A stretch of DNA of 64,000 bases from a virus, in IMG/VR virus record IMGVR_UViG_3300005831_000023; one strand, given 5' to 3'. Below are positions 2,108 through 49,037 of the stretch, piece after piece. Under the pieces are notes generated by a model. That model made no database searches. It saw only the letters and a program-made list of their open reading frames with translations, and had not been told where the DNA came from. Both the position numbers and the translations under genes were made by a program. How positions within the stretch are numbered: the stretch's first letter is position 1; each line of letters begins with the position of its first letter.

Positions 2108-2845
2108 ATGTTTCTAACTGAAAATAAAGTAAGTTTAATAAACGAAAATCTAATTAATGAACCTAATATATTAAAAACAATAGAAAAATGTACAAGACTT
2201 TGTTATGATTCTGGACATCTTACAACTCAAGATTCATATAAAAAAATAACTAAAAGTATTATAGATCACAATCATTTAGCAATGTTAGAGCATTATAGTT
2301 TATCATTCGAAATAACTTGTAGTCGTGGTTGTAGCATGGAGATTATAAGACATAGAATGGCAAGCTACGCTCAAAAATCCACAAGATACATTAATTCAAC
2401 TAAAAGAAATTTTAATATCATTAATCCATACTGGACAAAACTAGAACTCGGAGAATATATTTATATCCAAGCTCCAAACATGTTTCAAACAGATGAGATT
2501 GCTATTATTAAAAATGGCGAACAAAATATAGTTACTCATGCATTTAATGAGCTTGACTGGAATTTGCCACACAATCAATTTTTAAGAATGTGCTTAATGT
2601 CAGAGAAATTTTACTTTGAAACTATGACAATGAATAATTCACCTCAAGATTGTAAGTGCTTTATATTAGATTGTTTTGAAACTACTATAGTAATGACTGC
2701 TAATATCCGAGAATGGATTCATTTTATTAATTTAAGATATTATGAAACTACTGGAAAAGTATATCCAGAAATGAAAAAAGTAGCTGAAATGATATTAGAT
2801 ATTCTAAGCATAAAATTACCATTTGTATTTAAAAGAGGTGAATAA
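2108..2845 (+). CDS. thyX: Flavin-dependent thymidylate synthase ThyX
   Basis: ThyX signature RHRMASYAQKSTRY (RHRxxSxxxxSxR) and HLAMLEH. SD AAGGAGAG lies upstream. Confidence 0.9.
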   Translation: MFLTENKVSLINENLINEPNILKTIEKCTRLCYDSGHLTTQDSYKKITKSIIDHNHLAMLEHYSLSFEITCSRGCSMEIIRHRMASYAQKSTRYINSTKRNFNIINPYWTKLELGEYIYIQAPNMFQTDEIAIIKNGEQNIVTHAFNELDWNLPHNQFLRMCLMSEKFYFETMTMNNSPQDCKCFILDCFETTIVMTANIREWIHFINLRYYETTGKVYPEMKKVAEMILDILSIKLPFVFKRGE

Positions 2846-2847
2846 TT

Positions 2848-3384
2848 ATGAATTACTTATATTGTATAATTGGAAAGTCTGGAGTGGGTAAAACTACTGT
2901 TGCTACTGCATTACAACAAGAATATGGGTTGAAGTCAATTGATTCTTATACAACTAGACCTCGCAGATCAGAGAATGAAGTTGGTCATATATTTGTTAGC
3001 AATAAAGAATTCGAAGTTATAAATCAAGATTTAGTTGCATATACATTTTTTGATAATAATCATTATGGAGTTACCTTAGATCAAATAGAAGAATCGGATA
3101 TATATGTTGTTGATTGGGTTGGATATCAAGATTTACTCAAAAACTATGAGGGTAATAAAATTATAAAATCAGTGTATTTAGATGCAAAAGAATCAGTATT
3201 GTTAAGTAGAATGTTGAGACGAGAAAATGATTATCTTAAAGCTCAAACAAGAATTCATCATGATAAAATGAAATTCAACAAGATTAAAAAGAAGTGTGAT
3301 TATTGTATTGAGAATACTTTGTTAAATAAAACTATACAAGAATTCAAGCGCATTATGGACTACAACAATTCTTTGAAAGGCTAA
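2848..3384 (+). CDS. Guanylate-kinase-like nucleoside monophosphate kinase
   Basis: P-loop GKSGVGKTT followed by a guanylate-kinase-type SYTTRPRRxxExxGxxFVS segment. The gene is tightly coupled to thyX (2-nt gap). Confidence 0.7.
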   Translation: MNYLYCIIGKSGVGKTTVATALQQEYGLKSIDSYTTRPRRSENEVGHIFVSNKEFEVINQDLVAYTFFDNNHYGVTLDQIEESDIYVVDWVGYQDLLKNYEGNKIIKSVYLDAKESVLLSRMLRRENDYLKAQTRIHHDKMKFNKIKKKCDYCIENTLLNKTIQEFKRIMDYNNSLKG

Positions 3385-3388
3385 TGCT

Positions 3389-6300
3389 ATGAGATATAAT
3401 AACTACCATAAGCATACACACGAGTCAAATATTAAAACTTTAGATTGTGTAGTCAAACCAATTGACTATATTAAACATAGCCTTAATTTAGGTCATACAA
3501 GCTATTCTAGCGTTGAACATGGTTGGACTGGTAAATACATGTTAAATTATGATTTATGTGTAGAAAATGGATTAAAATTGATATATGGAGTAGAAGCATA
3601 CATTGTATTAGATAGATTCCAAAAAGATAAGTCTAATGCACATATAATTATTATAGCCTTAAATAGATTTGGATTTAAGCAATTAAATTTAATGCTGTCA
3701 GAAGCAAATAAGACTGGTCTATACTATAAAACTAGAATAGACTTGGAATTATTACTTAAACTTAATCCAGATGATTTTATAGTCACTACAGCTTGCTTGG
3801 GTGGAATAGCAAATGCTAAATATAATCTAGACTTTATTGATCCAATCCATAATCATTTCGGGAACCATTTCTATTTAGAGATTCAAAATCATATATCAAA
3901 TGAGCAAGCAGAATTAAATACTAGACTCCATAAGCTATCAATTGATAGGAATATAGAGCTAATACATGCAAATGATAGTCATTATATATTAGGATCAGAT
4001 AGTAAGTATAGAGATTTATTATTGAAAGGCAAAGGCATAAATTACGCTGTAGAAGATGGATTTAAGCTTGATTATCCAGATTATGATGTTATATTAGATA
4101 GATATAATAAACAAGGTGTATTAGCCTCTAAAACGGTAATTAAAGCTATACAAAATACATTGATATTTGATAACTGTGAAGATTTGAAATTTAATAAAGA
4201 AATTAAGATGCCAGCTTTCAAATGCAATGATACTACAAAAGAACTCAAAAAGATATTGAACAAAAAATATAAACAATCTGATGATAGAGATGTTTCTAGG
4301 AATAAAGAATATATAAAGTGTATTAAAGATGAACTTGATATAATAGTTAATACAAATATGCAAGATTATTTTTTGTATAACGAAAAGATAATTAGAGTTT
4401 CAAAAGAAGATTATAACTTAGTTCTAACTAGAACAGGAAGAGGGTCGTGCGTAAGTTTTTATTTAAATAAACTATTAGGATTCACAGAGATTGATAGACT
4501 TGTAAGCCCTATAACTCTATATCCTACAAGATTTATGTCAATTGAAAGAATATTATCTACTAAGAGTTTACCAGACATAGACTTTAATTGTGCCAATGTA
4601 GAACCAGTTGTAAAAGCTTCTAAACAAATTCTTGGCGAGAATGGTATTTATCAGATGATTGCTTTTGGTACTATGCAGAAGTCAGAAGCATTTCGAAACA
4701 TGTGTAGAGCATTAGATTTAGATATAGAATTATATAATGAAGTTGCAAAAGACTTAGATCAATATTCAGAACATCCAGATTGGAAAGATATAATTGAATC
4801 ATCAAAAGTATTTATTGGTACTATAGACAAGATATCTCCAGCGCCATGTTCTTATCTAATGATGGATAAGGATATATCAGAAGAGATTGGATTAATCAGA
4901 GTAAATAATCTTATTTGTTGTGCAATGGATGGAATGACCGCAGAAGTATTTAAATACCTCAAGAACGACTTCTTAGTAGTAAAAGTATGGGATATAATAT
5001 CTAAAACTTTTGAGGCTATAAACAAGCCTATACCCAATATCAAGCAACTAGAAGAATTACTTGATAATAAAGTTTGGGATTTATACGAAAATGGTCTTAC
5101 AGCTACACTAAACCAAGTTGAGACACAGTTATCAACAGGATTAGTCAAACAATATAAGCCTAAAAGTGTAGCAGAACTTTCAGCATTTGTTGCTTCTATT
5201 AGACCAGGATTCGCAAGTCTAGTGAATAAATTTATATCTAGAGAATACCATACAACAGGTATCAAAGAATTAGATGATTTATTAGAAGATAGTTACCATT
5301 ATATGTTATACCAAGAATCTATCATGAAATTTCTAATATGGTGTGGTATAAAGGAATCTGAGACATACGACATCATCAAAAAGATTGCTAAAAAGAAATT
5401 TAAAGAGCATGAATTAATAGAGCTTAAAACTAAACTAATAAATGGATTTAAGGCTAAAACAAATGAAGTTGATAAGTTTAATGAAGTTTGGCAAGTAGTA
5501 GAAGATGCAGCCAATTACAGCTTTAATGCTAGTCATAGTTTATCTGTAGCATATGACAGTTTATACCAAGCTTATCTTAAGGCTAATTATACTATAGAAT
5601 ATTTTACTGTTTGTTTAAATATTTTCAAAGAAGACTTAGAGAAGACCAACAGGATAATAGATGAATTAGATCATTTTAATATAAAATTATTCTCGGTTGA
5701 TTTTGAGCATTGCAATGATGATTATTCATTTGATAAAGAAACTCAGACTATTTATCGAAGTGTATTGTCTATTAAAGGTTTTGGAGAAAAGACTAATATT
5801 AGTTATATAATTAATAAGCTTAACAAGAATAAATTTGATGATTTCATAGACTTACTAAATGCATTGATAGAGAATGGGTTACAACAATCAAAGATCAATA
5901 TATTAATCAAACTTAACTTCTTTAAAAAGTTTGGAGATATTAATTACTTACTAGAAGTATCTAGAATATATAATCTATATAATACTACTAAGATACTATC
6001 AAAAGAGAAAATTGAGAAAGCTAATTTAAATATAGAAATTGTTAAAAAGCACTTTAAAAAAGAGACTGAAAAAAGCTATTCAGATATAGAATCCAATGTA
6101 AATTTTATTAAAGATATTTGTATAGATATAAAATATGAAAATTCCGATATAATAGATATTATACAATATGAAATGCTTTACTATGACATGATTACAAGTA
6201 CATTCAAGATTAGCAAATCAGTATATTATGTTCAAGATATTTTAGGAAAAAAGTCTAAAACTATTAAATGCTATAATCTTAAAACTGGTAAAACAATTAT

Positions 6301-6956: not shown

Positions 6957-7229
6957 CTATATATAACTACCAACTATATTCTTATCATCATTATGTTGTC
7001 TAGGCATAAATACTAGACCATGTGATTCGAAATAAGATTTACAAACATTTAAATCTTCGAATTTCTTAATTGTACTAGTAGTTTTTACACTTCCTTTACT
7101 TACTTCAAATAATCTTGATACTATGCTTTCTGGATAGTCTAAAGGTTGCTTATATATAGCATATATGTATATAGTATTATTTGTATTATTACATATTATT
7201 ATATCTTGTTTTTCAATGTCACCTTGCAA
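6957..7229 (-). CDS. Hypothetical protein (90 aa), convergent with the early operon
   Basis: Protein-like composition (..IYAIYKQPLDYPESIVSRLFEV..HGLVFMPRQHNDDKNIVGSYI). SD AGGAAGGTG lies upstream on the minus strand. Confidence 0.55.
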   Translation of the reverse strand: MQGDIEKQDIIICNNTNNTIYIYAIYKQPLDYPESIVSRLFEVSKGSVKTTSTIKKFEDLNVCKSYFESHGLVFMPRQHNDDKNIVGSYI

Positions 7230-7355
7230 ATTTTATTCACCTTCCTTTCTATTTCATATTACTACAACCAAAACTTTTTTTCAAATTAACTTTTTTGGTT
7301 AAATTGTTTTGGTATAAATTTAATAATTAATTTAATATGTTTATTGAAAGATATG

Positions 7356-7390
7356 AACCTATGAACTTATATATTAAATATTCATAGGTT
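7356..7390. promoter_or_regulatory. 10-bp perfect inverted repeat (operator or terminator candidate) in a divergent intergenic region
   Basis: AACCTATGAA (7356-7365) and TTCATAGGTT (7381-7390) separated by 15 nt. TTGACT at 7424-7429 follows, upstream of the recU-like gene. Confidence 0.35.
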
Positions 7391-7485
7391 TACATCTATT
7401 TTACAATAGTCTATTGACTAAGTGTATTAATTTAACATAAAGTCCATCGACTTTGCGTTAAAAAAATAAATTAGAGGTATTTTAT

Positions 7486-7983
7486 ATGAATGTTGGTAAA
7501 AACTTTGAGAATCAGTTTAGGAAATCAGTTCCAAAAGATGTACTATATTACAGAAATAAAGATACCGACCTATCTTGGTGTGGTGGTAATAGTAAGTTTA
7601 CTCCAAAAAGTGAATTTGATTGTTTATTATTTGATGGATATAATTTATTTATATTAGAACTTAAGTCTACTAAAGAATCAAGGATAAGTTTTGGAGATAA
7701 CGGAATGATTAAGACCCACCAGATCAGATCATTAAATTCTTATTCGCACTATAAAAATTGTATTTCTGGATTTATATTTAATTTCAGAGATAATTCAAAC
7801 TTTACTTGTTTTTTGAGCGTTCGAGATTTTGATATGATAACAACAGATACCGAGAAGAAATCAGTTAATATTAAAGAGATCGCCAAATATTGTATTCCAA
7901 TAGATAATAAACTACTTAGAATACAGTATTCATATGACATAGCAGGATTTTGTTTGAAATTTGCTGAAAATATTAATGTTTAA
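7486..7983 (+). CDS. recU: RecU-like Holliday junction resolvase (PD-(D/E)xK nuclease)
   Basis: N-terminal GKNFENQF. Catalytic-type segment FDCLLFDGYNLFILELKSTKE (D..D..ExK), then SF..HQI as in RecU. Confidence 0.65.
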   Translation: MNVGKNFENQFRKSVPKDVLYYRNKDTDLSWCGGNSKFTPKSEFDCLLFDGYNLFILELKSTKESRISFGDNGMIKTHQIRSLNSYSHYKNCISGFIFNFRDNSNFTCFLSVRDFDMITTDTEKKSVNIKEIAKYCIPIDNKLLRIQYSYDIAGFCLKFAENINV

Positions 7984-8122
7984 TAGGTTAGAATCTTTAA
8001 ATTGTCCAGAGAATTTTACATTTTTGTAGTATTTTTACAGATATGTACATAAAAAAAGCAATATCAAATATATATTACTTTTTTCAACTATGTACAAACT
8101 AATATGTTTACATTAGTTATCT

Positions 8123-8380
8123 GCTTTCAATATAGCAATTATTAGCTTCAATTCTAACAAATTAGTAAAGCTTAGTATCGTTTCAATGTACAATTGTTTA
8201 ATATTTTCAACTGTTTCAATAATAGCAATTGTTGTCAACTAACCGTCAAGTAACCGTCAAGTAACCGCATGTTTTCAGCTTTCAATATACAATTGTCGTT
8301 TATGTCTGCTTGCAACATAGCAATTATTAAATCTAAATTAATATCAGTTTCAATATACAATTGTTTAAATATTTTCAACT
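8123..8380. repeat. Decayed CRISPR-repeat-like units plus an 11-nt tandem repeat flanking the array
   Basis: Six units resemble the CRISPR repeat around a CAATTG core: 8123-8152, 8180-8212, 8213-8240, 8278-8307, 8308-8335 and 8347-8380. Units 8180-8212 and 8347-8380 are nearly identical to each other, and each abuts a repeat-like unit with no spacer. AACCGTCAAGT occurs as 2 full tandem copies plus a degenerate partial third copy (AACCGCATGT) at 8241-8273. Confidence 0.55.
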
Positions 8381-8671
8381 GTTTCAACATAACAATTGTT
8401 GTTTGCAAACTAATTAAGTTGAATTCAATTTAAATTAATGGTTTGCAGTTTCAACATAACAATTGTTGTTTGCAAACCACATACTAACAAAACAAAAGTT
8501 AAAACTCGAACGTTTCAACATAACAATTGTTGTTTGCAAACGCAGAAATAGTTGGTAATGGTAGTAAAAAAACAAGGTTTCAACATAACAATTGTTGTTT
8601 GCAAACACTGCATTTTTCGATTATTAACCATCCACCATAATGTTTCAACATAACAATTGTTGTTTGCAAAC
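8381..8671 (-). CRISPR. CRISPR array: 5 identical 30-nt repeats and 4 unique spacers
   Basis: Repeat GTTTCAACATAACAATTGTTGTTTGCAAAC at 8381-8410, 8448-8477, 8512-8541, 8577-8606 and 8642-8671. Spacers at 8411-8447 (37 nt), 8478-8511 (34), 8542-8576 (35) and 8607-8641 (35). The strand call is tentative. The minus strand matches the adjacent nuclease gene, places the decayed repeats at the distal end, and gives a repeat ending in GTTGAAAC. Confidence 0.9.
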
Positions 8672-8897
8672 GCTTTTCGAAACTAGCTTTCAAAAATTAC
8701 AAAACCTCTAACTAATCATTACAACTAGCTTTTAAGATTTTGTTCCAAGTACAATTGCATTTTGCTATCCAAGTGGATAGGGTGTCTATATAGTTCTTGG
8801 AAACTCAATAGACTTAACGAGCGGAAGCCAACTACCAAGTAGAATTACGACGAATACTCGCTTTTAGCCGCCAAATCGGCTTAAGTACTATTATATA
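8672..8897 (-). ncRNA. Candidate tracrRNA / omega-RNA-like scaffold (or array leader) between the nuclease stop codon and the array
   Basis: Non-coding and visibly richer in G/C than its surroundings. Hairpins CTATCC-AAGT-GGATAG (8765-8780) and GCCG-CCAAAT-CGGC (8867-8880). ACTTAA/TTAAGT long-range pairing (8812-8817 with 8880-8885). A repeat-like segment GTTCCAAGTACAATTGCATTTTGC at 8742-8765. No T-run terminator after the nuclease gene. Confidence 0.4.
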
Positions 8898-10169
8898 TTA
8901 CTTTTTATTTTTTTTCAACTTCTTTTTTATTATTTCTTGATTATCTGGGTTGGAAATATTTTTAGCAGCATTATAATCTGCATCAAGTTTTACTCCACAA
9001 TTAACACAAACAAATTCATCTCTTTTTACTCTATTGTCTTTATCTGTATGCCCACACCCACTACACTTTTGACTAGTGTATCTTGGGTTTATAAGTTTAA
9101 CTTCAATTCCAACTTCATCAGCTTTGTATTTAATCTTTTCTTGTAAATCGAAATAGCTCCAATCTTTAAGAAATAACTTATCTTTTTTAATATTTGATAA
9201 GTCTTCCATCTGTATTATTTTACAGTTATTCTTAACTGCTAATCCTACAATATATTTAGAATATTTATGGTTAATCAAATCTTTAAAATTAGCTATTTTC
9301 TTTCTCACAACTCTTACATATTTAGACCTATGTTTATATCCTCGACCTTTTATAGCATCGCTTTTTATGCTAGATTGCAAAGACTTTAATAAAGATTCTT
9401 GTTTCTTTCTAAAGCTGTCTATTTCGCCTCCTCTTATGTGATATCTTTTTAAATTATTATTAAATGCCATATAAGCAGCATTTACTATTCCCATGTCTAT
9501 ACCCATTATATTTTTATCACTTAAAAGTAACTCTTTCTTTTCCATACAATATGTTAAATTAATGAACCATTTATTCTTACTAAAAATTATCATTGAAGCT
9601 CCGATTTTATACTCTCCAGATAGCACGCTTTCAATTATTTTCTTTTGGTAATTACCATCAACTTTAATTTCTACGCAAACATGGCAACTACCTTCGTTTC
9701 TTGCAAATAACCTTAAGTCTACATAATACTTATTTTCATTTTCAATAACTTCTATGCTCTTAGAATGTAAATCTATAATACTATTTTTATAAGATGGAAT
9801 AGACATCTCACCTTTTAAAAACTTCTTCTTACTATCATTCCATTTCTTGCAACCTCTTTGAATAGAAGTTGAAATATTAGCTTTCGATAGCATTGGGTAT
9901 TCGGTTCTGATTACTTTATCACAATACCCACTAAAAGATTTGTATCCTAATATACTTAATATATCTGGTTTACACTCATGTTTGATATAATAATCCGAAC
10001 AATAATTATTCCATTCCCAATTTAATCTAATTGTTTTGTTCAATACTTTTTGTGTTTGGTCTTGAAACTCCACAAGTTGTTTCTTAAAATCTTTGAAATC
10101 TATACCCTCAGAATCGATTATCTGAAAGCGCATCACTTTATTTATTGTATCAATTTTTATTTCGTCCAT
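8898..10169 (-). CDS. cas12f: Miniature type V effector, Cas12f/TnpB-like RuvC nuclease (423 aa)
   Basis: Split RuvC motifs appear intact: GIDMG (D225, codon 9495-9497), IQMEDL (E322, codon 9204-9206) and DADYNAAKNI (D398, codon 8976-8978). Also RYTSQ plus a CxxC..CxxC zinc ribbon (C369/C372/C388/C391). Strong SD GGAGGA lies 6 nt upstream of the ATG. The gene sits directly next to the array. Confidence 0.85.
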   Translation of the reverse strand: MDEIKIDTINKVMRFQIIDSEGIDFKDFKKQLVEFQDQTQKVLNKTIRLNWEWNNYCSDYYIKHECKPDILSILGYKSFSGYCDKVIRTEYPMLSKANISTSIQRGCKKWNDSKKKFLKGEMSIPSYKNSIIDLHSKSIEVIENENKYYVDLRLFARNEGSCHVCVEIKVDGNYQKKIIESVLSGEYKIGASMIIFSKNKWFINLTYCMEKKELLLSDKNIMGIDMGIVNAAYMAFNNNLKRYHIRGGEIDSFRKKQESLLKSLQSSIKSDAIKGRGYKHRSKYVRVVRKKIANFKDLINHKYSKYIVGLAVKNNCKIIQMEDLSNIKKDKLFLKDWSYFDLQEKIKYKADEVGIEVKLINPRYTSQKCSGCGHTDKDNRVKRDEFVCVNCGVKLDADYNAAKNISNPDNQEIIKKKLKKNKK

Positions 10170-10170
10170 C

Positions 10171-10599
10171 TCATTCCTCCAGCATATTGTATATACAAAG
10201 TATGGACATATTAGCTACTTGACTTTTATTTACACCCCATTTTTTAGCAAGGTGTATTGTCAAATCATTAACGGAATTGAGCATATTGAATGATACATGT
10301 GTTGTATCTTTATTCTTCTTTATTCTATTATATGCAGTTCTAACATCATCAATATCTTTTATTTTAAATTTCAAATCTTCAAAACTTGTTTTTTTATCAA
10401 TTAATTTATTAATTTTCAATAAATCTTCTTGACTCAAGTTTTGTAAGTTTTCTATAATATTATCTATAGAAGTTTTAATTATAATCTTCTCTTTAATATT
10501 TTCTTGAGTTTTATTTTTTTTTGGATAATTAGCAGCTTGTTCTATATCTATATCTACGCCTTCATTTTTATTCTTCTTATTCATTTTCATACCTCTCAT
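10171..10599 (-). CDS. Putative centromere-binding partition protein (ParG-like, C-terminal ribbon-helix-helix)
   Basis: Follows parA with a 23-nt overlap. The C terminus THVSFNMLNSVNDLTIHLAKKWGVNKSQVANMSILCIYNML has a strand-helix-helix pattern. Alternative starts exist at M4 and M6. Confidence 0.5.
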   Translation of the reverse strand: MRGMKMNKKNKNEGVDIDIEQAANYPKKNKTQENIKEKIIIKTSIDNIIENLQNLSQEDLLKINKLIDKKTSFEDLKFKIKDIDDVRTAYNRIKKNKDTTHVSFNMLNSVNDLTIHLAKKWGVNKSQVANMSILCIYNMLEE

Positions 10600-11356
10600 T
10601 AATTTTTTTTATAACTTCATTTGTCAATTTTGCATATTGTCTGGATATTTCTAATTTATTATCAAATAATTCTATAGGAATACTTAGTTCTTGAGATCGT
10701 ATAATATTAACAGATTCAGATAATATTGTATTAAATATTTGGTTACTATCAAAATATTCGCTCATCTTTTCAAAACATTTTTTTGTTAAAGTTGTCCTTT
10801 TATTTGCTCTAGTTAATACAGTTCCCAATATTTCCAAATCGCTATTAGTATTATTTCTAATATCGTTAACTAAATTTATAATCCTGTTAATACCTTCAAA
10901 TGAAAATATTCCCACATCTATTGGTATTATTAAGTAATCGCATGCTGATAGAACATTTAAAGTTGCTATTCCCATTGTTGGTGAACAATCAAATAAAATA
11001 AATTTATAATCATCTTCTACCTCAGATATTCTTTTTTTGATTATCAATTCTCTAGCTAAATAATTTGAAAAGTCTAGATCGATGGAAGTAAGTTCCAAAT
11101 GACTTGGTATCAAATCCAGATTATCAAACTTAGTTTTTAGTATTGCATCTTTAATTCCTATTTCATTTTTAAGAACACTGTAAATATTTCTATCTTTGTG
11201 AGATTCTTTTTTAGTATAAATTCCTTGACTTAAATTTGCTTGGCTATCCATATCTACTAATAATGTTTTATACTTTTTAGATAAATTATATCCAATATTA
11301 ATAGTACTGGTAGTTTTAGCAGTGCCTCCCTTTTGGTTAAACATAGCTATTTTCAT
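10577..11356 (-). CDS. parA: ParA-family partition ATPase (deviant Walker A)
   Basis: MKIAMFNQKGGTAKTTST (KGGxxKT), DMDSQANLS and IIPIDVG. 259 aa with no N-terminal HTH, so it is type Ib-like. Confidence 0.9.
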   Translation of the reverse strand: MKIAMFNQKGGTAKTTSTINIGYNLSKKYKTLLVDMDSQANLSQGIYTKKESHKDRNIYSVLKNEIGIKDAILKTKFDNLDLIPSHLELTSIDLDFSNYLARELIIKKRISEVEDDYKFILFDCSPTMGIATLNVLSACDYLIIPIDVGIFSFEGINRIINLVNDIRNNTNSDLEILGTVLTRANKRTTLTKKCFEKMSEYFDSNQIFNTILSESVNIIRSQELSIPIELFDNKLEISRQYAKLTNEVIKKINERYENE

Positions 11357-11373
11357 ACTTCATCTCCCTTTTT

Positions 11374-11402
11374 TTAATATGTTTATAACTATAACATATC
11401 AA
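11374..11402 (-). promoter_or_regulatory. Candidate par operon promoter overlapping an inverted repeat (operator / parC-like)
   Basis: On the minus strand: TTGATA (11397-11402), 17 nt, TATTAA (11374-11379). Overlaps the inverted repeat ATATGTT..AACATAT (11376-11398). TAATATGT motifs recur at about 11420 and 11430. Confidence 0.3.
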
Positions 11403-11800
11403 AAATAAAAATACAATCATAATATGTTAATAATATGTATTTGTTATGTTTATTATAAAAATATATTAATAATAACTATATTTCGACAAAAAAAATAAGA
11501 CCGACCGAAGCCAATCTTATTCATCTTTAAGCTATCTGAAATAGCATCTTTTTTGAAAGTTATAGAATATTCGACAAAATAATTTAAATTAATCAAATAT
11601 TCCTCTTTTCTTTTGAAATAAAACCTGTTATTATTTTAGTTGTAAGTGACACCCTTATCAAAAAAACTTACATTCACATCAACCGAACTACCAATTCTGT
11701 TGATGTATATACAACTAAAAAATTCCAATTACGCCAATTTAATACAGCCATTGAAAAACAACCCGAAATTAAATATTGGTTATGTAATTGTAATACAAGA

Positions 11801-11847
11801 CCCACTAAGACCCACTAAGATACCACTAAGATACCACTAAGATACCC
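11801..11847. repeat. Iteron-like tandem repeats upstream of rep
   Basis: CCCACTAAGA x2 (11801-11820), then TACCACTAAGA x2 (11821-11842), then a partial TACCC. Confidence 0.7.
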
Positions 11848-12077
11848 TTATTAGGTGTTAAGCAAGTAATTAATTTGTTAGGACTATAGCGAACGAACCC
11901 CATAAGGAACGCCCCATGGATAAATTATAAAATAAAACCTACAATAAAGCAATACTTTTTTATACTTTTTTACATTAACAAAACTTATTAAAAAGTATTG
12001 GTAAAACAAAGTGTTTTTCGACAAATAATCACATGCTATTTATTGACGTTTTAAAGCATGTTTAAGACACTTAATTT

Positions 12078-12318: not shown

Positions 12319-13491
12319 ATGATAAAAATTAAAAGATACAAAGCAGAAGATTTAATTAAAAATAAATTTTATGAAATGCCTAAATTTTTACTATATAATG
12401 AGTTTAAAGGTTTATCTTATGGTGCTAAGATATTATATGTGTTACTTAAGGATAGACATAAATTGAGTATGAAAAACAATTGGGTGGATAAATATGGATA
12501 TATATATCTAATTTATACACGAAAAGATATGGCTAAAATGTTAAATTGTTCCGAACATAGTTCTATAAAATATGCTAAAGAATTAATAAAATATAAACTT
12601 ATTGAAGAAGATAGAATTGGTTATAATCAATCAAATAGAATATATTTAACAGAAATTACCATAGATATATACTCCAAACACACTGATATCAAGGACATGA
12701 ACAAATTGCAGTATGGACATGAAGAAAGTTCATGTCCGGACATGAAGAAAGTTCAACCTAATAAGAATAACTTTAATAATAATAATTCTACTAAGAATAA
12801 ATCTGTCTGTTCTGAATCAAAAGATGAACAATCGTTCGAACAAAAAACAGAAACAGACAGACAGACAGATATTGACATAAAAAATGATTTATTGGAAAAG
12901 GTTAACATCAACCTAAAAAATGACAAAAAAAAGGATTCATCAGCAAATACTAATGAAAACCTAAAAAATGACAATAAAAATTGTTTGGGTAAAGATCTTA
13001 AAATCAACACATTAAGCTATCCAATCAATTTTATTAAACAACATTTTAAGTTTAATGAGCTGATAAGTCAACCACCAATACAAGATGAGATTTTTGCAGA
13101 GTTGCATAAAATATTAAATTATAAGTCTCAAACCATTAAGATTGGCGCCAAGATACAAGATGAAGACATTGAGATATTTAAACAAAAGCTTATGAAACTT
13201 ACACCAGAAGACATACAAAATGTGGTAAATAAGGTCTTAGAAGTTGCAAATAAAGAATATGTTCAACATCCAGACTTGCTAATAAGGACTAAGATATACT
13301 ACCAGTTTAAATCTAGCATTAAGGCACTATCTAAAAACAATGCAAAAAGGAAACCAAAAGAACCTATACCAACAGTCAATAACATACCACAAGTACCACA
13401 GGAACGTAATTATGAGCAAAGAGAATACACAAGTGAGTACCTTGAAAGCTTTTATGAAAATTATTGGGATAAACATACTAAACCAGAATAA
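12319..13491 (+). CDS. repA: Plasmid replication initiator, RepA_N family
   Basis: The N-terminus FYEMPKFLLYNEFKGLSYGAKILYVLLKDRHKLSMKNNWVDKYGYIYLIYTRKDMAKMLNCSEHSSIKYAKELIKYKLIEE..NRIYL matches the RepA_N pattern. SD AAAGGAG upstream. Low-complexity central region with DNA-level repeats. Confidence 0.85.
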   Translation: MIKIKRYKAEDLIKNKFYEMPKFLLYNEFKGLSYGAKILYVLLKDRHKLSMKNNWVDKYGYIYLIYTRKDMAKMLNCSEHSSIKYAKELIKYKLIEEDRIGYNQSNRIYLTEITIDIYSKHTDIKDMNKLQYGHEESSCPDMKKVQPNKNNFNNNNSTKNKSVCSESKDEQSFEQKTETDRQTDIDIKNDLLEKVNINLKNDKKKDSSANTNENLKNDNKNCLGKDLKINTLSYPINFIKQHFKFNELISQPPIQDEIFAELHKILNYKSQTIKIGAKIQDEDIEIFKQKLMKLTPEDIQNVVNKVLEVANKEYVQHPDLLIRTKIYYQFKSSIKALSKNNAKRKPKEPIPTVNNIPQVPQERNYEQREYTSEYLESFYENYWDKHTKPE

Positions 13492-14498: not shown

Positions 14499-14837
14499 CT
14501 ACTTAGTTTTTGGTAATTTAAATACATTACTTTCGATTAAAGTTTTAATCAACTTATCAAATCCGTTTTTCTTACTTAAACCAAGTCTACTTGTCATTTC
14601 AAGAACTATATCAAATGCATTCTTGAATCTATCAATATTTTTATCATTCTTGTATAATTGTTCTGATAGGTTTACAGCATGTCCTACGATCGATTCTAGA
14701 GCCTTAATCTTATCCAAGGTCAAATTATACCTTGATTTATATAAGTCTTTTAAATACAAGAATAACGTGTATAGAACACATACTAACAAAACAAAAGTTA
14801 AAACTCGAACGGAATTATTCATTATTAACGCATACAT
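14499..14837 (-). CDS. Membrane-anchored hypothetical protein (single N-terminal TM), last gene of the lysis cluster
   Basis: 112 aa. N-terminal hydrophobic helix VLTFVLLVCVLYTLFLYL. Lies directly downstream of the endolysin gene. Contains the spacer 2 match. Confidence 0.7.
   Translation of the reverse strand: MYALIMNNSVRVLTFVLLVCVLYTLFLYLKDLYKSRYNLTLDKIKALESIVGHAVNLSEQLYKNDKNIDRFKNAFDIVLEMTSRLGLSKKNGFDKLIKTLIESNVFKLPKTK
14777..14810. other. Protospacer: perfect 34/34 match to CRISPR spacer 2 (8478-8511)
   Basis: CACATACTAACAAAACAAAAGTTAAAACTCGAAC is identical on the plus strand at both sites. The next base (G) also matches the first base of the following repeat. The match covers codons ~10-20 of the 112-aa gene. 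Confidence 0.95.
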
Positions 14838-28297: not shown

Positions 28298-30340
28298 TCA
28301 TAATCTATATGCATGATAGTCATATCTTGCATAAGTTATACCATTGACAGAAAATATTTCATATGATGGATAAGAACTCGTTAGTTTACCATAATATATA
28401 TTGTCTGCAACATAAGTATATACTTTATCAGCAGGAGTATCTTGGCAGAAATATCTTTTACCCATCATTACAGCATTATAACCCATATAATAATACCCAT
28501 TTCCATATACGTCACTAACTAAACTTTGCTCAGTACTAGCTATTTTAGTAGCATCATTTATACATCCCTTAACAACAAAAACTTCTTGACCATCGTGAAT
28601 TCTAGTAGCACTAAAATCTCTATATAGCGGATAAGCACTATTAATATCTGAAAATGGTAACATATACTGACCATTTAATCCATCGATAACTTTAAACTTT
28701 ACAGTATAGTTACTATTGTCAATATAGAAGAATAATTCACCCATGTAAAAAGCTTGGATTGATTCATTACTTGGAAGTCTAACAGATACATCTATGATCT
28801 TTTGTACAGCAATAGAACGTGCCATTCGAATACTAATACCATTCTTAGTTAGACTAGCGTAGTTAGTTGTTAAATTACTTGCAAGTGCATCATCGCAATA
28901 AAAATTAATTGTCCAACCTAGCAAGTCTTGAAACATTGTAGCACAAGTATTTACAACTCTAGAATTAATACTTTTTCCTGCTTCGGATGTAGTAATTCTA
29001 GCTGTTGTAATGCCATAAGAATCTGTTCCTGCACTAGTACTTAAAACAGTTTTAACACCATAAACATAATCATCATTTTTCATGCTAGAAACTACATTGA
29101 AATTATATCTATTTGAACCAGTGCCAGTAAATACTTTAATGCTTCTAGCACGTTTGAAAGATGAATCATAGTAATATAATTTAGATTTTTCACCAAGACT
29201 TATAACAGGAGGAGTAAAATTAGGATATCCGTCATTATAAGCGTTAAGATACCAACACGTTGTAAAATCCCATCCAACAAATGTTGATTGAGTTTTCATT
29301 TCAGAAGTTGTTTTAGGAGTTGCATAAAGTTCTGGAAATATACAAGTATCTGAGTTATAATAACAAGATGTCATAACAATTGGTGGATCGCTTATAGCAC
29401 CAAGAAAAGCTCCAGGCTCTTCTTCCGTTAATTCGGTTTGATTTGTATAATTAAGTACACAATAGCTATTAATATAAGTGTTATCATAATAGGTAAATGG
29501 TACAAATCCTGCTACAAAGCGAGGATTGATTGTAACTATTAGATTACAAATAGAAAAACAGTTTATAACATAAATAGCATCAAGTTCAGAAGCAAAACCG
29601 CCAGTATATCCATATTGACAAGTAATTGTTGAAACAGAACTACATTTTTCGATTCTTAACCATCCACCATAATTTACAAATCCACCAAAAGAATCTATAC
29701 CACCAAAAGTTGCTGTTGAATGACAATTTTCTATATAGTTATATTCTTCAAAATTAGCACTCCATCCTTCGCAACCTCCAATAAATCCTCCGACATTATA
29801 AGGTAATTTTGAACCAGTATTGTTAATTATAAGACTTGTAGTACAATCTTTTATATAACTAAATGTATTACTTGGATAAAACTCACCAGACAAACCTCCA
29901 ATTGTACTAGGGAAATAAACATTACAATTTGAGTTTATAGTTAAACTTGTAGTTATGTTTTCAATTTTACCAGAATAAATACCACCCGCTAATGCACCTA
30001 ATTTCAAAACTGAATCAGTCCAAGTTGCATCATTTAAATTTATTATAGCATTTTCTATATTAATATTCTTTATAGTATAAGCTGTTGTAATATCACTAAA
30101 TAGCCCCCAATACCAAGTATCAAATGGATTCATAACTAGATTAGTGATTTTAAATCCACCGCCATCATATCCTCCTGTAAATTCTCCACCAATTGGCGAC
30201 CAACTTGGGTAATCACTTAAGTCAATATCAGCTGTCTGTAAGAAAAATGATGATAAATAATTTCTAACATAGTTTAATTGTATTGAATTGCTTACAAGGT
30301 ATGGATCAAACTCCGTACCAGTACCGCCATCAAAAGACAT
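28298..30340 (-). CDS. Tail-associated protein with a GLUG-motif beta-helix-like N-terminal half
   Basis: The N terminus GTGTEFDPYLVSNSIQLNYVRNYL..ADIDLS..WSPIG..FTGGYDGGGFKITNL is typical of GLUG-motif proteins. Repeated GG(L/F)xG motifs. Confidence 0.75.
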   Translation of the reverse strand: MSFDGGTGTEFDPYLVSNSIQLNYVRNYLSSFFLQTADIDLSDYPSWSPIGGEFTGGYDGGGFKITNLVMNPFDTWYWGLFSDITTAYTIKNINIENAIINLNDATWTDSVLKLGALAGGIYSGKIENITTSLTINSNCNVYFPSTIGGLSGEFYPSNTFSYIKDCTTSLIINNTGSKLPYNVGGFIGGCEGWSANFEEYNYIENCHSTATFGGIDSFGGFVNYGGWLRIEKCSSVSTITCQYGYTGGFASELDAIYVINCFSICNLIVTINPRFVAGFVPFTYYDNTYINSYCVLNYTNQTELTEEEPGAFLGAISDPPIVMTSCYYNSDTCIFPELYATPKTTSEMKTQSTFVGWDFTTCWYLNAYNDGYPNFTPPVISLGEKSKLYYYDSSFKRARSIKVFTGTGSNRYNFNVVSSMKNDDYVYGVKTVLSTSAGTDSYGITTARITTSEAGKSINSRVVNTCATMFQDLLGWTINFYCDDALASNLTTNYASLTKNGISIRMARSIAVQKIIDVSVRLPSNESIQAFYMGELFFYIDNSNYTVKFKVIDGLNGQYMLPFSDINSAYPLYRDFSATRIHDGQEVFVVKGCINDATKIASTEQSLVSDVYGNGYYYMGYNAVMMGKRYFCQDTPADKVYTYVADNIYYGKLTSSYPSYEIFSVNGITYARYDYHAYRL
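29639..29673. other. Near-protospacer: 33/35 match to CRISPR spacer 4 (8607-8641)
   Basis: Genome ACTACATTTTTCGATTCTTAACCATCCACCATAAT versus spacer ACTGCATTTTTCGATTATTAACCATCCACCATAAT. Same orientation as the spacer 2 match. Confidence 0.9.
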
Positions 30341-43229: not shown

Positions 43230-43664
43230 CTAAACTGAGTCCTTCTTCGCCTCCATTCGCTTCATTTTTTCTAAAAAATCTTCATCTTTTATACCATTCA
43301 TATTATTAGCAATAGTTATAATATCTAATAAATTTTGAGTGGTTAAATTATCTATAAAATCCTGCGTTGGTTCTTTATCAAATACAGCTGTCAAGTATTT
43401 ATTTAGTATACTATCTCCATCTTCATATCTCAATATTTCAGATACACCTATTGTTTTAATTATCATAAAACTATTATAGTCACCAGACTTGAAATATTTG
43501 ATCTTAGTAGCCTTAATAGTGATTATACCTATACCATCCACTTCAATTTGATTATTCTCTAATTTAGGCTTTTTAACGTTTGTAGAGGTATCTATATCTT
43601 CTTTCATTGTGTCAAAGCTTTCTGTAGCTTTTAATAACATTTCTCTTTCAACTTTATTGCTCAT
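43230..43664 (-). CDS. Tail assembly chaperone (G-like)
   Basis: 144-aa acidic protein upstream of the tape measure gene. Confidence 0.6.
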   Translation of the reverse strand: MSNKVEREMLLKATESFDTMKEDIDTSTNVKKPKLENNQIEVDGIGIITIKATKIKYFKSGDYNSFMIIKTIGVSEILRYEDGDSILNKYLTAVFDKEPTQDFIDNLTTQNLLDIITIANNMNGIKDEDFLEKMKRMEAKKDSV

Positions 43665-44544
43665 TAAAGTATCTCCTATCGTTTGTTAGTAAAGGCTCAT
43701 CACCTTTTTTAAGTTTAGGACATAGATGTAAGTTAGGCTTAACAACGTTATCTATATATTTATACTGATAAACTAAAATATTGCCATTTCTAATACATGG
43801 ATTTTGACAGCAATTATCAATACAATATTGTTGGTATTCACACATTATATGATCCTGGAATAAAGAAGTATCAACATACAATTTAAACCCATTCTCTTTG
43901 GCGCTTAAACAAAATGGTATATCTTCGCCAAATTCATGAAAATCATATCTGCATTTTGTATATGCATTCTTACTTATTAGGTACACTGCTCCAGTGTAAT
44001 CACATTCTACAATTGAGTTAAGTGGAAATTCATAAAAATGTGATATTGAGTTATATCTATTATTTATCAATACATTAGTTCTTATATGTGGATATTCTCT
44101 ATAAGGTTGGAGTATACTATCATTATTGATTAAGCAAGCAATTATATCTTTTTTACTTTTTAACAACTTTTTAAGTGTATTAGGAACTAAAATAATATCG
44201 CTATCAACGCTTAAAAAATAATCAGTATCTAAATTTTCTAAGATATGGTTTCTAAGAAGTGTTAATCTTCTATACGTTTCATTTCTATAAGTATCTAATC
44301 GCTTGTCTTTAAAAGCTGGAAGTTTATACTTCTCAAGTTTAATTTCTAGATATTCTTTATCATGAATTGATTTAAATCTTCTTAAAGTAGAATCAGTTCC
44401 ATCTTGACAGTTATTAATTAAGAAATATAGTTTAATTTTATCCTTGGGATAATCTAGATTATAGATAGCTTCTAAATATCTATCTATTAAATATTCTCTA
44501 TTAGATATTGGACATCCAATTGTTATAGTACGCAAATCAATCAC
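43654..44544 (-). CDS. Glycosyltransferase, family 2 (GT-A fold)
   Basis: N terminus ITIGCPISNREYLIDRYLEAIYNLDYPKDKIKLYFLINNCQDGT and a DSD motif (SVDSDIILV). Overlaps the chaperone gene start by 11 nt. Confidence 0.75.
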   Translation of the reverse strand: MIDLRTITIGCPISNREYLIDRYLEAIYNLDYPKDKIKLYFLINNCQDGTDSTLRRFKSIHDKEYLEIKLEKYKLPAFKDKRLDTYRNETYRRLTLLRNHILENLDTDYFLSVDSDIILVPNTLKKLLKSKKDIIACLINNDSILQPYREYPHIRTNVLINNRYNSISHFYEFPLNSIVECDYTGAVYLISKNAYTKCRYDFHEFGEDIPFCLSAKENGFKLYVDTSLFQDHIMCEYQQYCIDNCCQNPCIRNGNILVYQYKYIDNVVKPNLHLCPKLKKGDEPLLTNDRRYFNEQ

Positions 44545-44611
44545 CTCGTATTAGTGTCTAATTTGCTTTATATGGATTTGTTTAAAAAGACATGTAATTA
44601 TAGCTTAAAAC

Positions 44612-44660
44612 TAAATAAGAGGCTTATAAGGCATCTAGACGTCAAATAAGCCTATATATA
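44612..44660 (+). repeat. Short copy of the rep-proximal repeat family
   Basis: TAAATAAGAGGCTTATAAGGCATCTAGACGTCAAATAAGCCTATATATATC shares AGAGGCT, TAAG, ATCTAGA and GACGTCAAAT(A/T)AG(C/A)C..TATAT blocks, in the same order and orientation, with unit 13495-13612. Confidence 0.55.
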
Positions 44661-45284
44661 TCATTGTATAACGAATAATGCATTTCCCATTCCAAGATAG
44701 TTATATTCATTATCATCATGAATTAATGTAAATCCATTTTTCTCTAAGAATTTAGTATAGTCTTCAAATAGACATAGACCAGTGTAGCGCTCTTTTATAG
44801 AGTACTCAGTATATATAAGCTTAATTTGTTTTATAGCTATTCTAGATGCGCTAAGGACGTTATACTCATTGCCTTCCATATCAAACCAACAAACTATATC
44901 TCCAGTTATTTTGTTATTCTTAACAAACTTGTCTAAAGTAATAGTTTCAACAGTTTGTTTAGTTTTAAAATATACATCTGGATGAATAGTCAAATGTTCC
45001 TTTGGTTCTAACAAAGTATCTGATCCAGTTGTATTTCCAGAACTTACAAACATCTCAGAAGTACCATTCTTGTTGTGCAATGCAAGATTAAACAACTTAA
45101 CATTAGCTAGGTCTTTAGTTCTATCAGTTAACTCAGCAAAATGATGAGTAATAGGTTCTATTCCATACACAATTCCATTAGAAAATACATTGCTTAATTG
45201 AACTGTATCAAAACCTTTATTAGCTCCTGCATCAATTACTGTAGCATTATTTCCAACATACTTAAGAAAATCAAGTTTGTTCAT
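44661..45284 (-). CDS. FkbM-family SAM-dependent methyltransferase
   Basis: VIDAGANKGFDT (SAM-binding Gly-rich motif). LDKFV..I..DIVCWFDMEGNEYNVL is typical of FkbM-type methyltransferases. Confidence 0.7.
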   Translation of the reverse strand: MNKLDFLKYVGNNATVIDAGANKGFDTVQLSNVFSNGIVYGIEPITHHFAELTDRTKDLANVKLFNLALHNKNGTSEMFVSSGNTTGSDTLLEPKEHLTIHPDVYFKTKQTVETITLDKFVKNNKITGDIVCWFDMEGNEYNVLSASRIAIKQIKLIYTEYSIKERYTGLCLFEDYTKFLEKNGFTLIHDDNEYNYLGMGNALFVIQ

Positions 45285-45285
45285 A

Positions 45286-45984
45286 TCACAACTCCTTTAT
45301 TTTTATTCTTTCTAATACATTCAAGCTAAGTCTTTTAACAAAATTATCATGGTCATTTTCCCAGTTTATATGATAAGCTTCATCATTTGAATCTTTACTT
45401 CTTTTGCCAAGCACAAAATGTCTATGCTCAAATAATGTATTATCATTAATTCTATTATCTTTTAAGACACCTAAATCTCTAACATTAAAGTAAAGCTCGG
45501 TATCACTAAACATATGAGTATATGAAGGATGATAGATGGCTTTGTTTAATAACTTAAGACACTTAAAAGTCATTATTGGAATTGTAATAGATGGTCTATA
45601 TCCAAGATTATATGGATCTTGATACCCATCATTAACAAATAAACATCCAGCAAAGTCATTAAATTGGTCAAATAAATATAAATCCCAGTCAATTGGTGCG
45701 AAAAAATCGTCGGAACTCAATATTATAATATCATTATCATTAGCATCTAAATTAGAAGTTAAGTAATAAGTTGGATATACAACACCTCTAGTTCCATTGT
45801 CTGCAACGAATACTTCACAGTTAGATATATTATAACTATCTATTATTGATTTTTGAGAATCATTCGATACAGCTACTTTTAATATAATATTATCAATATT
45901 ACTACATTTAGATTTCCAGTCATTATATGTATCATAAAACATTTGTGGTCTTACAGTTGACCAAAGTAAATATATATTCATCAC
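45286..45984 (-). CDS. Hypothetical protein in the glycosylation cluster (possible glycosyltransferase)
   Basis: Operon context. IIILSSDDFFAP could be a DxD-like motif. No secure family assignment. Confidence 0.6.
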   Translation of the reverse strand: MMNIYLLWSTVRPQMFYDTYNDWKSKCSNIDNIILKVAVSNDSQKSIIDSYNISNCEVFVADNGTRGVVYPTYYLTSNLDANDNDIIILSSDDFFAPIDWDLYLFDQFNDFAGCLFVNDGYQDPYNLGYRPSITIPIMTFKCLKLLNKAIYHPSYTHMFSDTELYFNVRDLGVLKDNRINDNTLFEHRHFVLGKRSKDSNDEAYHINWENDHDNFVKRLSLNVLERIKIKEL

Positions 45985-46685
45985 TTACCCCAATTCCACT
46001 TTTCTCTAAAGTAACTTGCTCTATCATAGTAGTTTGTTTCAGATAATACATGAGTCTTATTCCATTTACTAGTTTGTTTAGCATGGTAGTAAGAACAGTC
46101 TAATTGGTACACATCCCATTTTAAAGCTTGCATTTGGAAAAACAAATCATCATCCTCAAACCCCCATCCTACTTTATAATTTTCATCAAACATGCATTTA
46201 TCAAATACTTCACTTTTAAACAATCCATATTGAGTTAATGCATATGAAGCAAATGAAACTTCATGTTTTAAAAGTTCATGTTCAATCGAAGGGAGTTGAG
46301 GAGTATAAGTTTTCAAGTCGTTTGTAAAATACTTAGGATTGAATCCAATGCATTTAGCATTAAAATTTAAATCATCAAATCTGTTTTTAAAGTAATTTAA
46401 ACTTCCGTTAATATATAATATATCAGAATCCATCATTAGTATAAAATCACCTTTAGCAACTCTAATCATTTGATTCCTACCAATTGCAGAGCCAACATTT
46501 TCACTATTCAAGATACTTATAAGGTCATTTTGATCTTTCAACCATTCTTGTGATCCATCTACTGAACCATTATCCAATATAATAATTTCTAAGTCTACAG
46601 TTTTACGCTCTTCACGTAAATTATCTATTGTAGGTTTTAATATTTCTAACCAATTCCAATTAATAATGCAAACACTAAATGTCAT
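45981..46685 (-). CDS. Glycosyltransferase, family 2
   Basis: FSVCIINWNWLEILKPTIDNL..IIILDNGSVDGSQEWL and MDSDILY (DxD). Confidence 0.8.
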   Translation of the reverse strand: MTFSVCIINWNWLEILKPTIDNLREERKTVDLEIIILDNGSVDGSQEWLKDQNDLISILNSENVGSAIGRNQMIRVAKGDFILMMDSDILYINGSLNYFKNRFDDLNFNAKCIGFNPKYFTNDLKTYTPQLPSIEHELLKHEVSFASYALTQYGLFKSEVFDKCMFDENYKVGWGFEDDDLFFQMQALKWDVYQLDCSYYHAKQTSKWNKTHVLSETNYYDRASYFREKWNWGK

Positions 46686-46690
46686 GGTGA

Positions 46691-47422: not shown

Positions 47423-47910
47423 ATGCTATCCCTTTCGATATCATCTACATAACCAATAATTCTAGCAGGATTTCCAACAACTATAGCATAGTCTGGGACA
47501 TCCTTGGTAACTACTGATCCAGCTCCAACCATAGCGTATTTGCCAATTATTAAATCTGGTAATATAGTGCAATTAGCACCTATAGAAGCTCCTTTTTTAA
47601 CTAAAGTTTTCTCGATACTCCAATTATCTTTAAATGCTCTTGGAAACTTATCATTAGTAAATTGAGTGCCTTGACCAATATAAACTTGATTTCTTATGGT
47701 TACACCATTGTATATATTTACCGAGTTTTGTATCTTGCAATGATTGCCAATACTTACACTCTTATCTATATATGAATTAGCTCCAATACTAGTTCCAAAG
47801 CCTATTATTGCATGATCTCTAACTTGAACATTGTTCCAGATTTTAGCACCATTTTTTATAGTAGATTTATCACTTATTTCTGATATTTTGTGAATAAATG
47901 CTTCTGCCAT
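47419..47910 (-). CDS. Sugar N-/O-acetyltransferase with left-handed beta-helix hexapeptide repeats
   Basis: Repeated [LIV]-G-x-x-x-x hexapeptide pattern (IGFGTSIGANSYI, IGNHCKIQNSVNI, IGANCTI, VGAGSVV, VGNPARI). Confidence 0.8.
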   Translation of the reverse strand: MAEAFIHKISEISDKSTIKNGAKIWNNVQVRDHAIIGFGTSIGANSYIDKSVSIGNHCKIQNSVNIYNGVTIRNQVYIGQGTQFTNDKFPRAFKDNWSIEKTLVKKGASIGANCTILPDLIIGKYAMVGAGSVVTKDVPDYAIVVGNPARIIGYVDDIERDSI

Positions 47911-47912
47911 AA

Positions 47913-49034: not shown

Positions 49035-49037
49035 CTC

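Follow-up and report, generated by a model that had tools for sequence, protein, structure and literature searches.

The closest described relatives of the locus reported here are the type V-F1 CRISPR systems built around Cas12f1, a lineage already characterised both structurally and biochemically and used for genome editing. The effectors are small, with 422 amino acids (aa) in AsCas12f1, 415 in RhCas12f1 and 433 in OsCas12f1 (PMC7229846, PMC10090079). In the As and Sp systems the stretch separating gene from array encodes a trans-activating CRISPR RNA (tracrRNA) of 153-169 nucleotides (nt) (PMC8548392), and both effectors perform cleavage of double-stranded DNA (dsDNA) that depends on a PAM (protospacer-adjacent motif) on the 5' side, as well as plasmid interference (PMC7229846, PMC8548392). 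Type V-F systems are significantly enriched on plasmids, and systems borne by mobile genetic elements (MGEs) often have no adaptation module (PMC9071438). Here we analysed a 64,000-nt stretch of viral DNA, IMG/VR record IMGVR_UViG_3300005831_000023 (the window), in which an original prediction had placed a hypercompact type V CRISPR-Cas locus on a phage-plasmid, at positions 8123-10169.

We conclude with high confidence that the locus is a type V-F1 CRISPR-Cas12f system of the former V-U3 lineage. Its carrier is probably a phage distantly related to c-st with a plasmid replicon, and its likeliest use is against competing elements. The original prediction had recognised the gene and the array; the tracrRNA, the parA-parX-cas12f operon, the decayed repeats and the self-matching spacers described below were absent from it.

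The Cas12f effector and its lineage

The two central features of the locus are as follows.
8898-10169, minus strand: cas12f, very probably a type V-F1 effector of the AsCas12f/V-U3 lineage, 423 aa
8381-8671, minus strand (the likely orientation, see below): CRISPR array, five identical 30-nt repeats and four spacers

The 423-aa protein carries the motifs GIDMG (at residue 223), MEDL (321), RYTSQ (363), CSGC (369), CVNC (388) and DADYNAAKNI (396). The RuvC triad D225/E322/D398, together with C369, C372, C388 and C391, occupied invariant columns in an alignment of 30 homologous sequences, and the motif set and intact triad noted in the original prediction are therefore upheld. Pfam identified a Cas12f1-like_TNB domain (4e-23). 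A phmmer search against all PDB sequences gave best E-values of 1e-95 to 8e-94 over residues 10-419, with chains 8J1J, 8J12, 8J3R, 8DZJ and 7WJU (422-446 aa), which Foldseek names AsCas12f and OsCas12f; the next matches were 9NZQ (1.7e-84), SpCas12f1, CnCas12f1 and Un1Cas12f1. Two PADLOC models aligned end to end, namely Cas12f (V-F effector; 3e-119, 397 bits) and Cas12u3 (1.5e-115, 385 bits). An AlphaFold2 model built from 30 homologs had a pLDDT (predicted local distance difference test) of 84, and Foldseek searches with this model placed AsCas12f first (E of about 1e-43, 40-41% identity), followed by the Os, Sp, Cn and Un1 Cas12f proteins. All of the top 24 structures were Cas12f chains, and TnpB structures scored far lower.

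We then considered whether the gene could be an ordinary IS200/IS605-type transposon nuclease, TnpB, that happens to adjoin repeats. The protein shares with TnpB (ISDra2 TnpB, PDB 8EXA/8H1J) a RuvC and zinc-ribbon core fold and a common ancestry, databases label its homologs 'transposase', the broad NCBIfam guided_TnpB subfamily model was passed, and Pfam OrfB_IS605 produced a weak match below its cutoff (E=3e-4). However, the TnpB-specific NCBIfam models remained far below their cutoffs (70 bits against 425 for IS200_TnpB, NF038281, and 44 against 350 for IS607_TnpB), much weaker than the full-length best matches, which were to Cas12f. Moreover, what lies 3' of the gene is a CRISPR array and a predicted tracrRNA rather than an omega-RNA and a transposon end, and no TnpA turned up among the open reading frames (ORFs) scanned. 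The TnpB reading is thus effectively refuted. The related proposal of a TnpB-to-Cas12 intermediate did not survive either, since the protein nests within the characterised Cas12f1/V-U3 lineage and is accompanied by array and predicted tracrRNA.

Comparison with AsCas12f1 of Acidibacillus (Sulfoacidibacillus) sulfuroxidans (PDB 7WJU, 8J12, 8DZJ) showed proteins of nearly the same length (422 and 423 aa) and about 41-42% identity over the full length, which have the RuvC triad and the C-terminal zinc ribbon in common. The loci also correspond, both consisting of the gene, a long tracrRNA in the gap, and an array of 30-nt repeats with spacers in the range of 33-39 nt, with no cas1, cas2 or cas4. 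In contrast to the As locus, the window has a tracrRNA of divergent sequence, a nearly palindromic repeat, a phage-plasmid as carrier and a cas12f gene joined to a partition operon. Domain scans, which covered ORFs of at least 90 aa in the window, detected no Cas1, Cas2 or Cas4 domain across the 64 kb, as the original prediction had stated. This absence is not the surprise it was taken for, as the V-U3/Cas12f1 loci characterised so far consist of little more than gene, tracrRNA and array, and systems carried by MGEs often have no adaptation genes. Likewise, a length at the very small end of Cas12 is no novelty beside the published proteins of 415-433 aa listed above.

Further relatives, with about 39-40% identity, are the locus on plasmid p02 of B. 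thuringiensis HD-771 (L005) and BtCas12f1/BfCas12f1 (Kong et al. 2023, PMC10090079). Gene, tracrRNA and array are co-directional in the plasmid locus, and its repeat, GTTTAAACATAACAATAGATGTATTGAAAT, is similar to GTTTGCAAACAACAATTGTTATGTTGAAAC in the window. The plasmid locus differs in having a duplicated unit of tracrRNA and mini-array, no link to parA, and no spacer self-match within the 7.2 kb examined. We take the p02 locus to be the archetypal V-U3 locus.

The nearest relative of the window protein among 5.8 billion proteins was 52% identical, and we therefore regard it as a divergent member of the lineage. A search of isolate genomes for close Cas12f relatives yielded just one distant TnpB-like match. 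By analogy with the characterised proteins, the locus probably encodes a functional nuclease system.

Array, tracrRNA and orientation

Further features around the array and in the gap that separates it from cas12f are listed here.
8741-8887, minus strand: predicted tracrRNA, from fold, covariance model and homology to locus L001
8890-8918, minus strand: promoter-like TTGAAA-17-TATAAT, a consensus match (11/12) and the best-scoring in 7900-9000
8672-8740, minus strand: putative leader between tracrRNA and array, with a weak promoter-like TTGTAA-N17-TGTAAT at 8696-8724
8347-8378, 8310-8337, 8280-8301, 8213-8243, 8180-8210 and 8125-8151, minus strand: six decayed repeats, from gapped alignment

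The repeat reads GTTTCAACATAACAATTGTTGTTTGCAAAC on the plus strand and GTTTGCAAACAACAATTGTTATGTTGAAAC on the gene strand, and its five copies (starting at 8381, 8448, 8512, 8577 and 8642) have no mismatches. The spacers at 8411-8447, 8478-8511, 8542-8576 and 8607-8641 (37, 34, 35 and 35 nt) are mutually unrelated. No further copy of the repeat was found elsewhere in the 64 kb with up to three mismatches allowed, and shuffled sequences gave none. The five identical repeats, the four unique spacers of 34-37 nt and the distance of 226 nt (8672-8897) between the last repeat and the stop codon of the 423-aa ORF are all as first reported. The exact repeat had no match in IMG/VR, JGI metagenome contigs or GTDB genomes, and megablast of positions 7000-12000 against phages and plasmids gave no match.

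This gap is predicted to encode a divergent tracrRNA on the gene strand. Folding of the minus-strand RNA gave -59.9 kcal/mol (z=-3.5 relative to shuffles), as against z=+0.1 for the plus strand. The predicted RNA comprises a 5' hairpin (8866-8881), a GCGAG...CGCTCG stem with a TTAAG motif (8813-8861) and a terminal hairpin (8765-8780), and after this last hairpin a repeat-complementary segment (8742-8765) that pairs with the repeat in either orientation. The promoter-like site at 8890-8918 overlaps the 3' end of cas12f and would start transcription near 8883-8887, just beyond the stop codon.

We searched for this RNA with two covariance models. The first, R1, was made from 13 published tracrRNAs and located tracrRNAs beside cas12f in four other loci, always on the gene strand. 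The second, R2, combined seven published tracrRNAs with six new matches and left out both the window and L001 (Logan SRR21620677), the closest homologous locus. R2 gave a single match in the whole window, with both strands counted, at 8887-8772 on the minus strand (24.6 bits, E=3e-4), and also matched the equivalent position in L001. The gap could be aligned over its full length to the region 3' of the L001 cas12f, with compensatory changes in 7 of the 21 predicted pairs. As the two Cas12f proteins are only 53% identical, these changes indicate purifying selection on the RNA. Rfam contained no family for the tracrRNA region. Duplication of such RNAs was observed in two of the comparison loci: L005 contains two tandem units of a tracrRNA and a 3-repeat array at 4381-5253, and in L002 cas12f is flanked on either side by a tracrRNA-like match, at 9411-9528 and 11301-11414.

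Which strand of the array is transcribed is less evident from the repeat itself. It is nearly palindromic, and on hand comparison either orientation fits the published repeats of the family about equally. Since neither duplex energy nor repeat similarity settled the matter, orientation was assigned from the locus architecture of the family. Wherever a comparison locus had an unambiguous orientation (all six loci compared were co-directional), the CRISPR RNA (crRNA)-sense repeat was on the gene strand; these loci include the HD-771 plasmid and L003, whose repeat has its 3' 18 nt in common with the published Pt1 repeat. With the minus strand as sense, the window repeat ends in 3' TTGAAAC, as do several published repeats, the decayed repeats described below fall at the leader-distal end, and the promoter scan revealed no plus-strand promoter-like site ahead of the array. 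The promoter-like site in the putative leader was read from the sequence and lies below the criteria of the promoter scanner. We are therefore fairly confident, by analogy, that the array is transcribed from the minus strand, co-directionally with cas12f; the near-palindromic repeat keeps us from a firmer statement. The TTGAAAC ends of the gene-strand repeats also appeared as -35-like hexamers in the promoter scan (for example 8648-8620, 10/12), and promoters inside the repeats are conceivable.

The array extends beyond its canonical part. The decayed copies in 8125-8378 are identical to the repeat at 20-24 of 30 positions, their spacers are shortened or rearranged, and they stretch the array to 8125, which is the leader-distal end if the array lies on the minus strand. 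Thus, of the originally delimited stretch 8123-10169, the gene and canonical array stand as described, and 8125-8378 consists of decayed copies rather than canonical array. We rejected a reading of these units as centromere iterons of the partition genes, because they align to most of the CRISPR repeat and because the region upstream of parA has repeats of its own. An 18-nt match links 8361-8378 to position 5611, inside the PolIII gene; it could not be extended, and DNA this AT-rich could plausibly yield it by chance. TRF detected an 11-nt tandem repeat (GTCAAGTAACC, 3.1 copies) at 8234-8267, in a spacer-like slot within the decayed part. The decayed end adjoins a 165-aa ORF (7486-7983, plus strand) with no Pfam family and no match to Cas4; a weak PADLOC CARF_PDDEXK match (E=0.002 over 24 residues) hints that its product may be a small PD-(D/E)xK nuclease.

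Partition operon and probable phage-plasmid carrier

Upstream of cas12f are the genes that place it in a plasmid maintenance region.
10577-11356, minus strand: parA, 259 aa, first gene of the operon (Pfam AAA_31 2e-50, CbiA 2e-20)
10171-10599, minus strand: parX (name coined here), 142 aa, between parA and cas12f, with no Pfam family
12319-13491, plus strand: RepA_N replication initiator (Pfam RepA_N 3e-23), divergent from the par-cas12f operon

The ATG of cas12f lies 1 nt past the stop codon of parX and is preceded by GGAGG (junction ...GGAGGAATGAGATG), indicating that parA, parX and cas12f form one operon with cas12f as its last gene. From its position, parX probably encodes a small centromere-binding partner of ParA. 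RepA_N had its best plasmid match in a C. botulinum plasmid. Tandem repeats were found by TRF inside the RepA_N coding sequence (12693-12804; 23-nt units in 2.8 copies, then 15-nt units in 3.1 copies), and an 11-nt unit, CCACTAAGATA, is repeated 4.2 times between parA and repA (11802-11846). We presume that the former could be an internal origin or iterons, and that the latter is a possible centromere or operator.

The remainder of the window is that of a tailed phage, with genes for terminase (TerL), portal, a 2441-aa tape measure protein, Dit and baseplate proteins, along with an amidase endolysin that bears an SLH domain; ribonucleotide reductase, ThyX, dUTPase and the PolIII alpha subunit are encoded as well. 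The location of the locus in the maintenance region of a tailed phage with ParA and RepA_N, as originally proposed, was thereby confirmed. TerL was closest to that of Clostridium phage c-st (34%), which we take to be a plasmid prophage, and the ORFs scanned across the 64 kb included no integrase. The natural reading of these genes is a large phage-plasmid distantly related to c-st.

The same cassette is present in L001, which has the same gene order, a ParA 71% identical, a 139-aa counterpart of parX (36%), Cas12f (53%) and the homologous tracrRNA with compensatory changes, followed by a first repeat inside which the contig ends. L001 differs in carrying an AcrVA2-like gene (Pfam PF26125; 1774-2664) between its parX counterpart and cas12f; no such gene was found in the window. 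An anti-CRISPR-like gene adjoining the MGE's own cas12f is curious.

Related loci were also found on cultured phages. Alicyclobacillus phage MMB025 (L008, PV686781.1) has at 2295-4341 a tracrRNA-like RNA (32 bits), two mini-arrays and a cas12f homolog, annotated just as 'transposase' and 'CRISPR', and Bacillus phage Mgbh1 (L007) has at 2801-4296 a two-repeat mini-array upstream of a cas12f homolog. Homologs labelled 'transposase' and accompanied by tracrRNA-like RNA and mini-arrays also occurred on large phage-like metagenomic contigs. With such mini-loci on cultured phages and the enrichment of V-F on plasmids (PMC9071438), the description of a phage-plasmid as an unusual vehicle is not supported. 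Our literature search found no publication linking Cas12f to phage-plasmids.

Self-matching spacers and the use of the system

Two of the four spacers match the window itself.
14777-14811: protospacer of spacer 2, 34/34 (14777-14810), or 35 nt with one repeat base
29639-29673: protospacer of spacer 4, 33/35, inside a 680-aa tail-region gene (28298-30340, minus strand)

Shuffled spacers reached at most 24-28 matching positions in the window. Spacer 2 matches codons 10-21 of a gene for a 112-aa membrane protein (14499-14837, minus strand) that comes directly after the amidase endolysin gene, on its downstream side. Between spacer 4 and the resident allele there are two differences, one non-synonymous (AGA/ATA, R/I) and the other synonymous (TGT/TGC), suggesting either that it was copied from a diverged allele or that the resident gene has mutated since. 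The 680-aa target protein had no relatives in IMG/VR or metagenomes.

Within the lineage, the published PAM is YTTN for As, TTC for Sp and YTTH for Os, and orthologs from Bacillus and Parageobacillus use TTCA and TTTA (PMC8548392, PMC10090079). Read on the gene strand, protospacer 2 has the 5' flank TTCC and protospacer 4 the 5' flank GTAA; in the opposite orientation, they have AGAA and CAGA. GTAA fits none of the published PAMs of the lineage. TTCC contains the TTC of SpCas12f1 one position out of register and resembles the TTCA used for Bacillus orthologs.

In the mechanism that we propose from the precedent of As, Sp and Os Cas12f1, the tracrRNA would pair with the repeat part of each crRNA, and a Cas12f dimer would take up this guide, read a 5' PAM and cut dsDNA at its single RuvC site (D225/E322/D398). 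The array, having no cas1 or cas2 beside it, would be static or would be extended in trans by host machinery. Co-transcription of cas12f with the partition genes would mean that the system is expressed during maintenance of the plasmid prophage. Its most likely use would be interference with competing mobile elements. The likeliest targets would be near-identical sibling phage-plasmids, in superinfection exclusion or incompatibility, because two of the four spacers match late genes of the lineage, one of them with allele differences; the resident copies would be spared by a non-permissive PAM. As an explanation of the self-matching spacers, we favour this targeting of competitors tentatively, at a little under even odds.

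There is precedent for such a use. Viral arrays commonly target related viruses, and a role of plasmid CRISPR systems in inter-plasmid competition is an established idea (PMC11656645). Viral mini-arrays and plasmid type IV and V-M systems (PMC11656645; PMC9071438) resemble the window in having no adaptation genes, in carrying spacers that match their own lineage and in the logic of competition between related elements. They differ in that the window brings its own effector, predicted to be nuclease-active, and its own tracrRNA rather than borrowing from the host, and in that one of its spacers matches the resident genome perfectly.

Several results weigh against parts of this account of the locus. 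The first covariance model (R1) did not match the gap RNA even with filters off, and the R2 match is modest at 24.6 bits, with a rough calibration of its E-value. The anti-repeat duplex would be stabler with a convergent array (-20.3 kcal/mol) than with a co-directional one (-12.5 kcal/mol), which, together with the near-palindromic repeat, makes the crRNA orientation and the side of the PAM uncertain. It is possible that the TTCC flank of protospacer 2 is permissive; spacer 2 would then direct a lethal self-target, arguing that the system is inactive or repressed. None of the four spacers matched phages or plasmids (blastn, word size 11, E<=1), IMG/VR contained no match to codon-degenerate patterns of the two self-protospacers or to the cores of spacers 1 and 3 searched exactly, and the metagenome collections likewise gave no external target. 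Since no relatives of the phage were found, the sibling competitors are themselves postulated. In addition, the window covers 64 kb of a 118-kb source contig, and the negative results hold for the window.

A different view of the same matches is that spacers 2 and 4 are guides directed at the carrier's own lysis-cassette and tail genes, for control of lysogeny or as a switch. Binding at sub-optimal PAMs that leads to no productive cleavage could keep late genes down in the plasmid lysogen, or the matches could form a self-destruct or abortive switch upon induction. In favour of this view, both matches are exact or nearly so and lie in late genes, cas12f shares a transcription unit with maintenance genes, and the collections searched contained no external target. 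The template strand would be the target strand for both spacers if the array is co-directional with cas12f, but with n=2 spacers this agreement is not significant. The intact RuvC triad argues against such a role, as does the behaviour of the characterised relatives, which are PAM-dependent cleavers and do not bind PAM-less dsDNA (PMC8548392). Moreover, the targets lie within ORFs and not in promoters, the allele differences of spacer 4 suggest a foreign source, and the other V-F arrays examined, phage-borne ones included, have no self-matches: none was seen in loci L002-L005, each compared with itself, or in phages MMB025 and Mgbh1, whose spacers also matched nothing else in the whole phage collection. 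We consider self-directed guides unlikely; if true, they would mean self-regulation of a virus by a nuclease-competent miniature Cas12 expressed from a partition operon.

The self-matches could also be tolerated in a locus that is decaying or silent, in which effector, tracrRNA or crRNAs are not made or not assembled, and whose spacers may derive from the element's own DNA through host Cas1-Cas2 acting in trans. Over half of the repeat copies are decayed, the tracrRNA diverges from the family consensus, no adaptation genes were found, and an active nuclease does not sit easily with a perfect self-match whose flank contains TTC. However, the ORF is intact with all catalytic residues and zinc ligands invariant, cas12f has a strong ribosome-binding site and tight operon coupling, and the five canonical repeats remain 100% identical. 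The structure of the tracrRNA has also been kept by compensatory changes relative to L001, in spite of a protein only 53% identical. A relic therefore appears improbable, if somewhat less so than self-directed guides.

Finally, the contig could be a consensus or chimera in which the array (of one strain or of a separate plasmid) and the protospacers (of a sibling strain or of a targeted phage) never shared one molecule. The source is a JGI metagenome contig, self-targeting is otherwise unexpected, and the tetranucleotide correlation of the CRISPR/par/rep module is slightly lower (0.94-0.95) than that of other regions (0.98-0.99), though a slightly lower value is expected of a short, partly non-coding module. 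Phage genes flank this module on both sides, so that two false joins would be needed. Furthermore, in composition it resembles the remainder of the window, codon usage is similar throughout, and it sits at a natural switch of coding strand and GC skew. An assembly artefact is accordingly doubtful, to about the same degree as self-directed guides, and interference with competitors remains our preferred reading.

Two observations concern genes elsewhere in the window. A run of sugar-modification genes (43654-51055, minus strand) lies within the virion-structural block and encodes GT2/Anp1-like, FkbM methyltransferase, GT2, GT-D-like, hexapeptide acyltransferase, aminotransferase and two GT1-like proteins; it may serve glycosylation of the virion or of the host surface. 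A sigma-factor-like protein (phrog_5767, 2e-32) is encoded at 62745-63737 on the minus strand, upstream of the packaging genes.

The locus is a divergent addition to the already known V-F1 lineage, and the effector itself adds little. For tool developers it offers one more 423-aa ortholog, about 41% identical to AsCas12f, whose guide scaffold is divergent and whose PAM may differ. Together with MMB025 and Mgbh1, the window suggests that phages of Firmicutes recurrently carry V-F1 systems that are annotated as 'transposase'. The value of the finding is ecological, in that a miniature effector, nuclease-competent as judged from its sequence, forms part of a phage-plasmid's partition operon, with the cassette shared by its closest homolog. 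The self-matches pose the question of whether CRISPR serves incompatibility or superinfection exclusion between sibling phage-plasmids, and of how the carrier would then avoid targeting itself.

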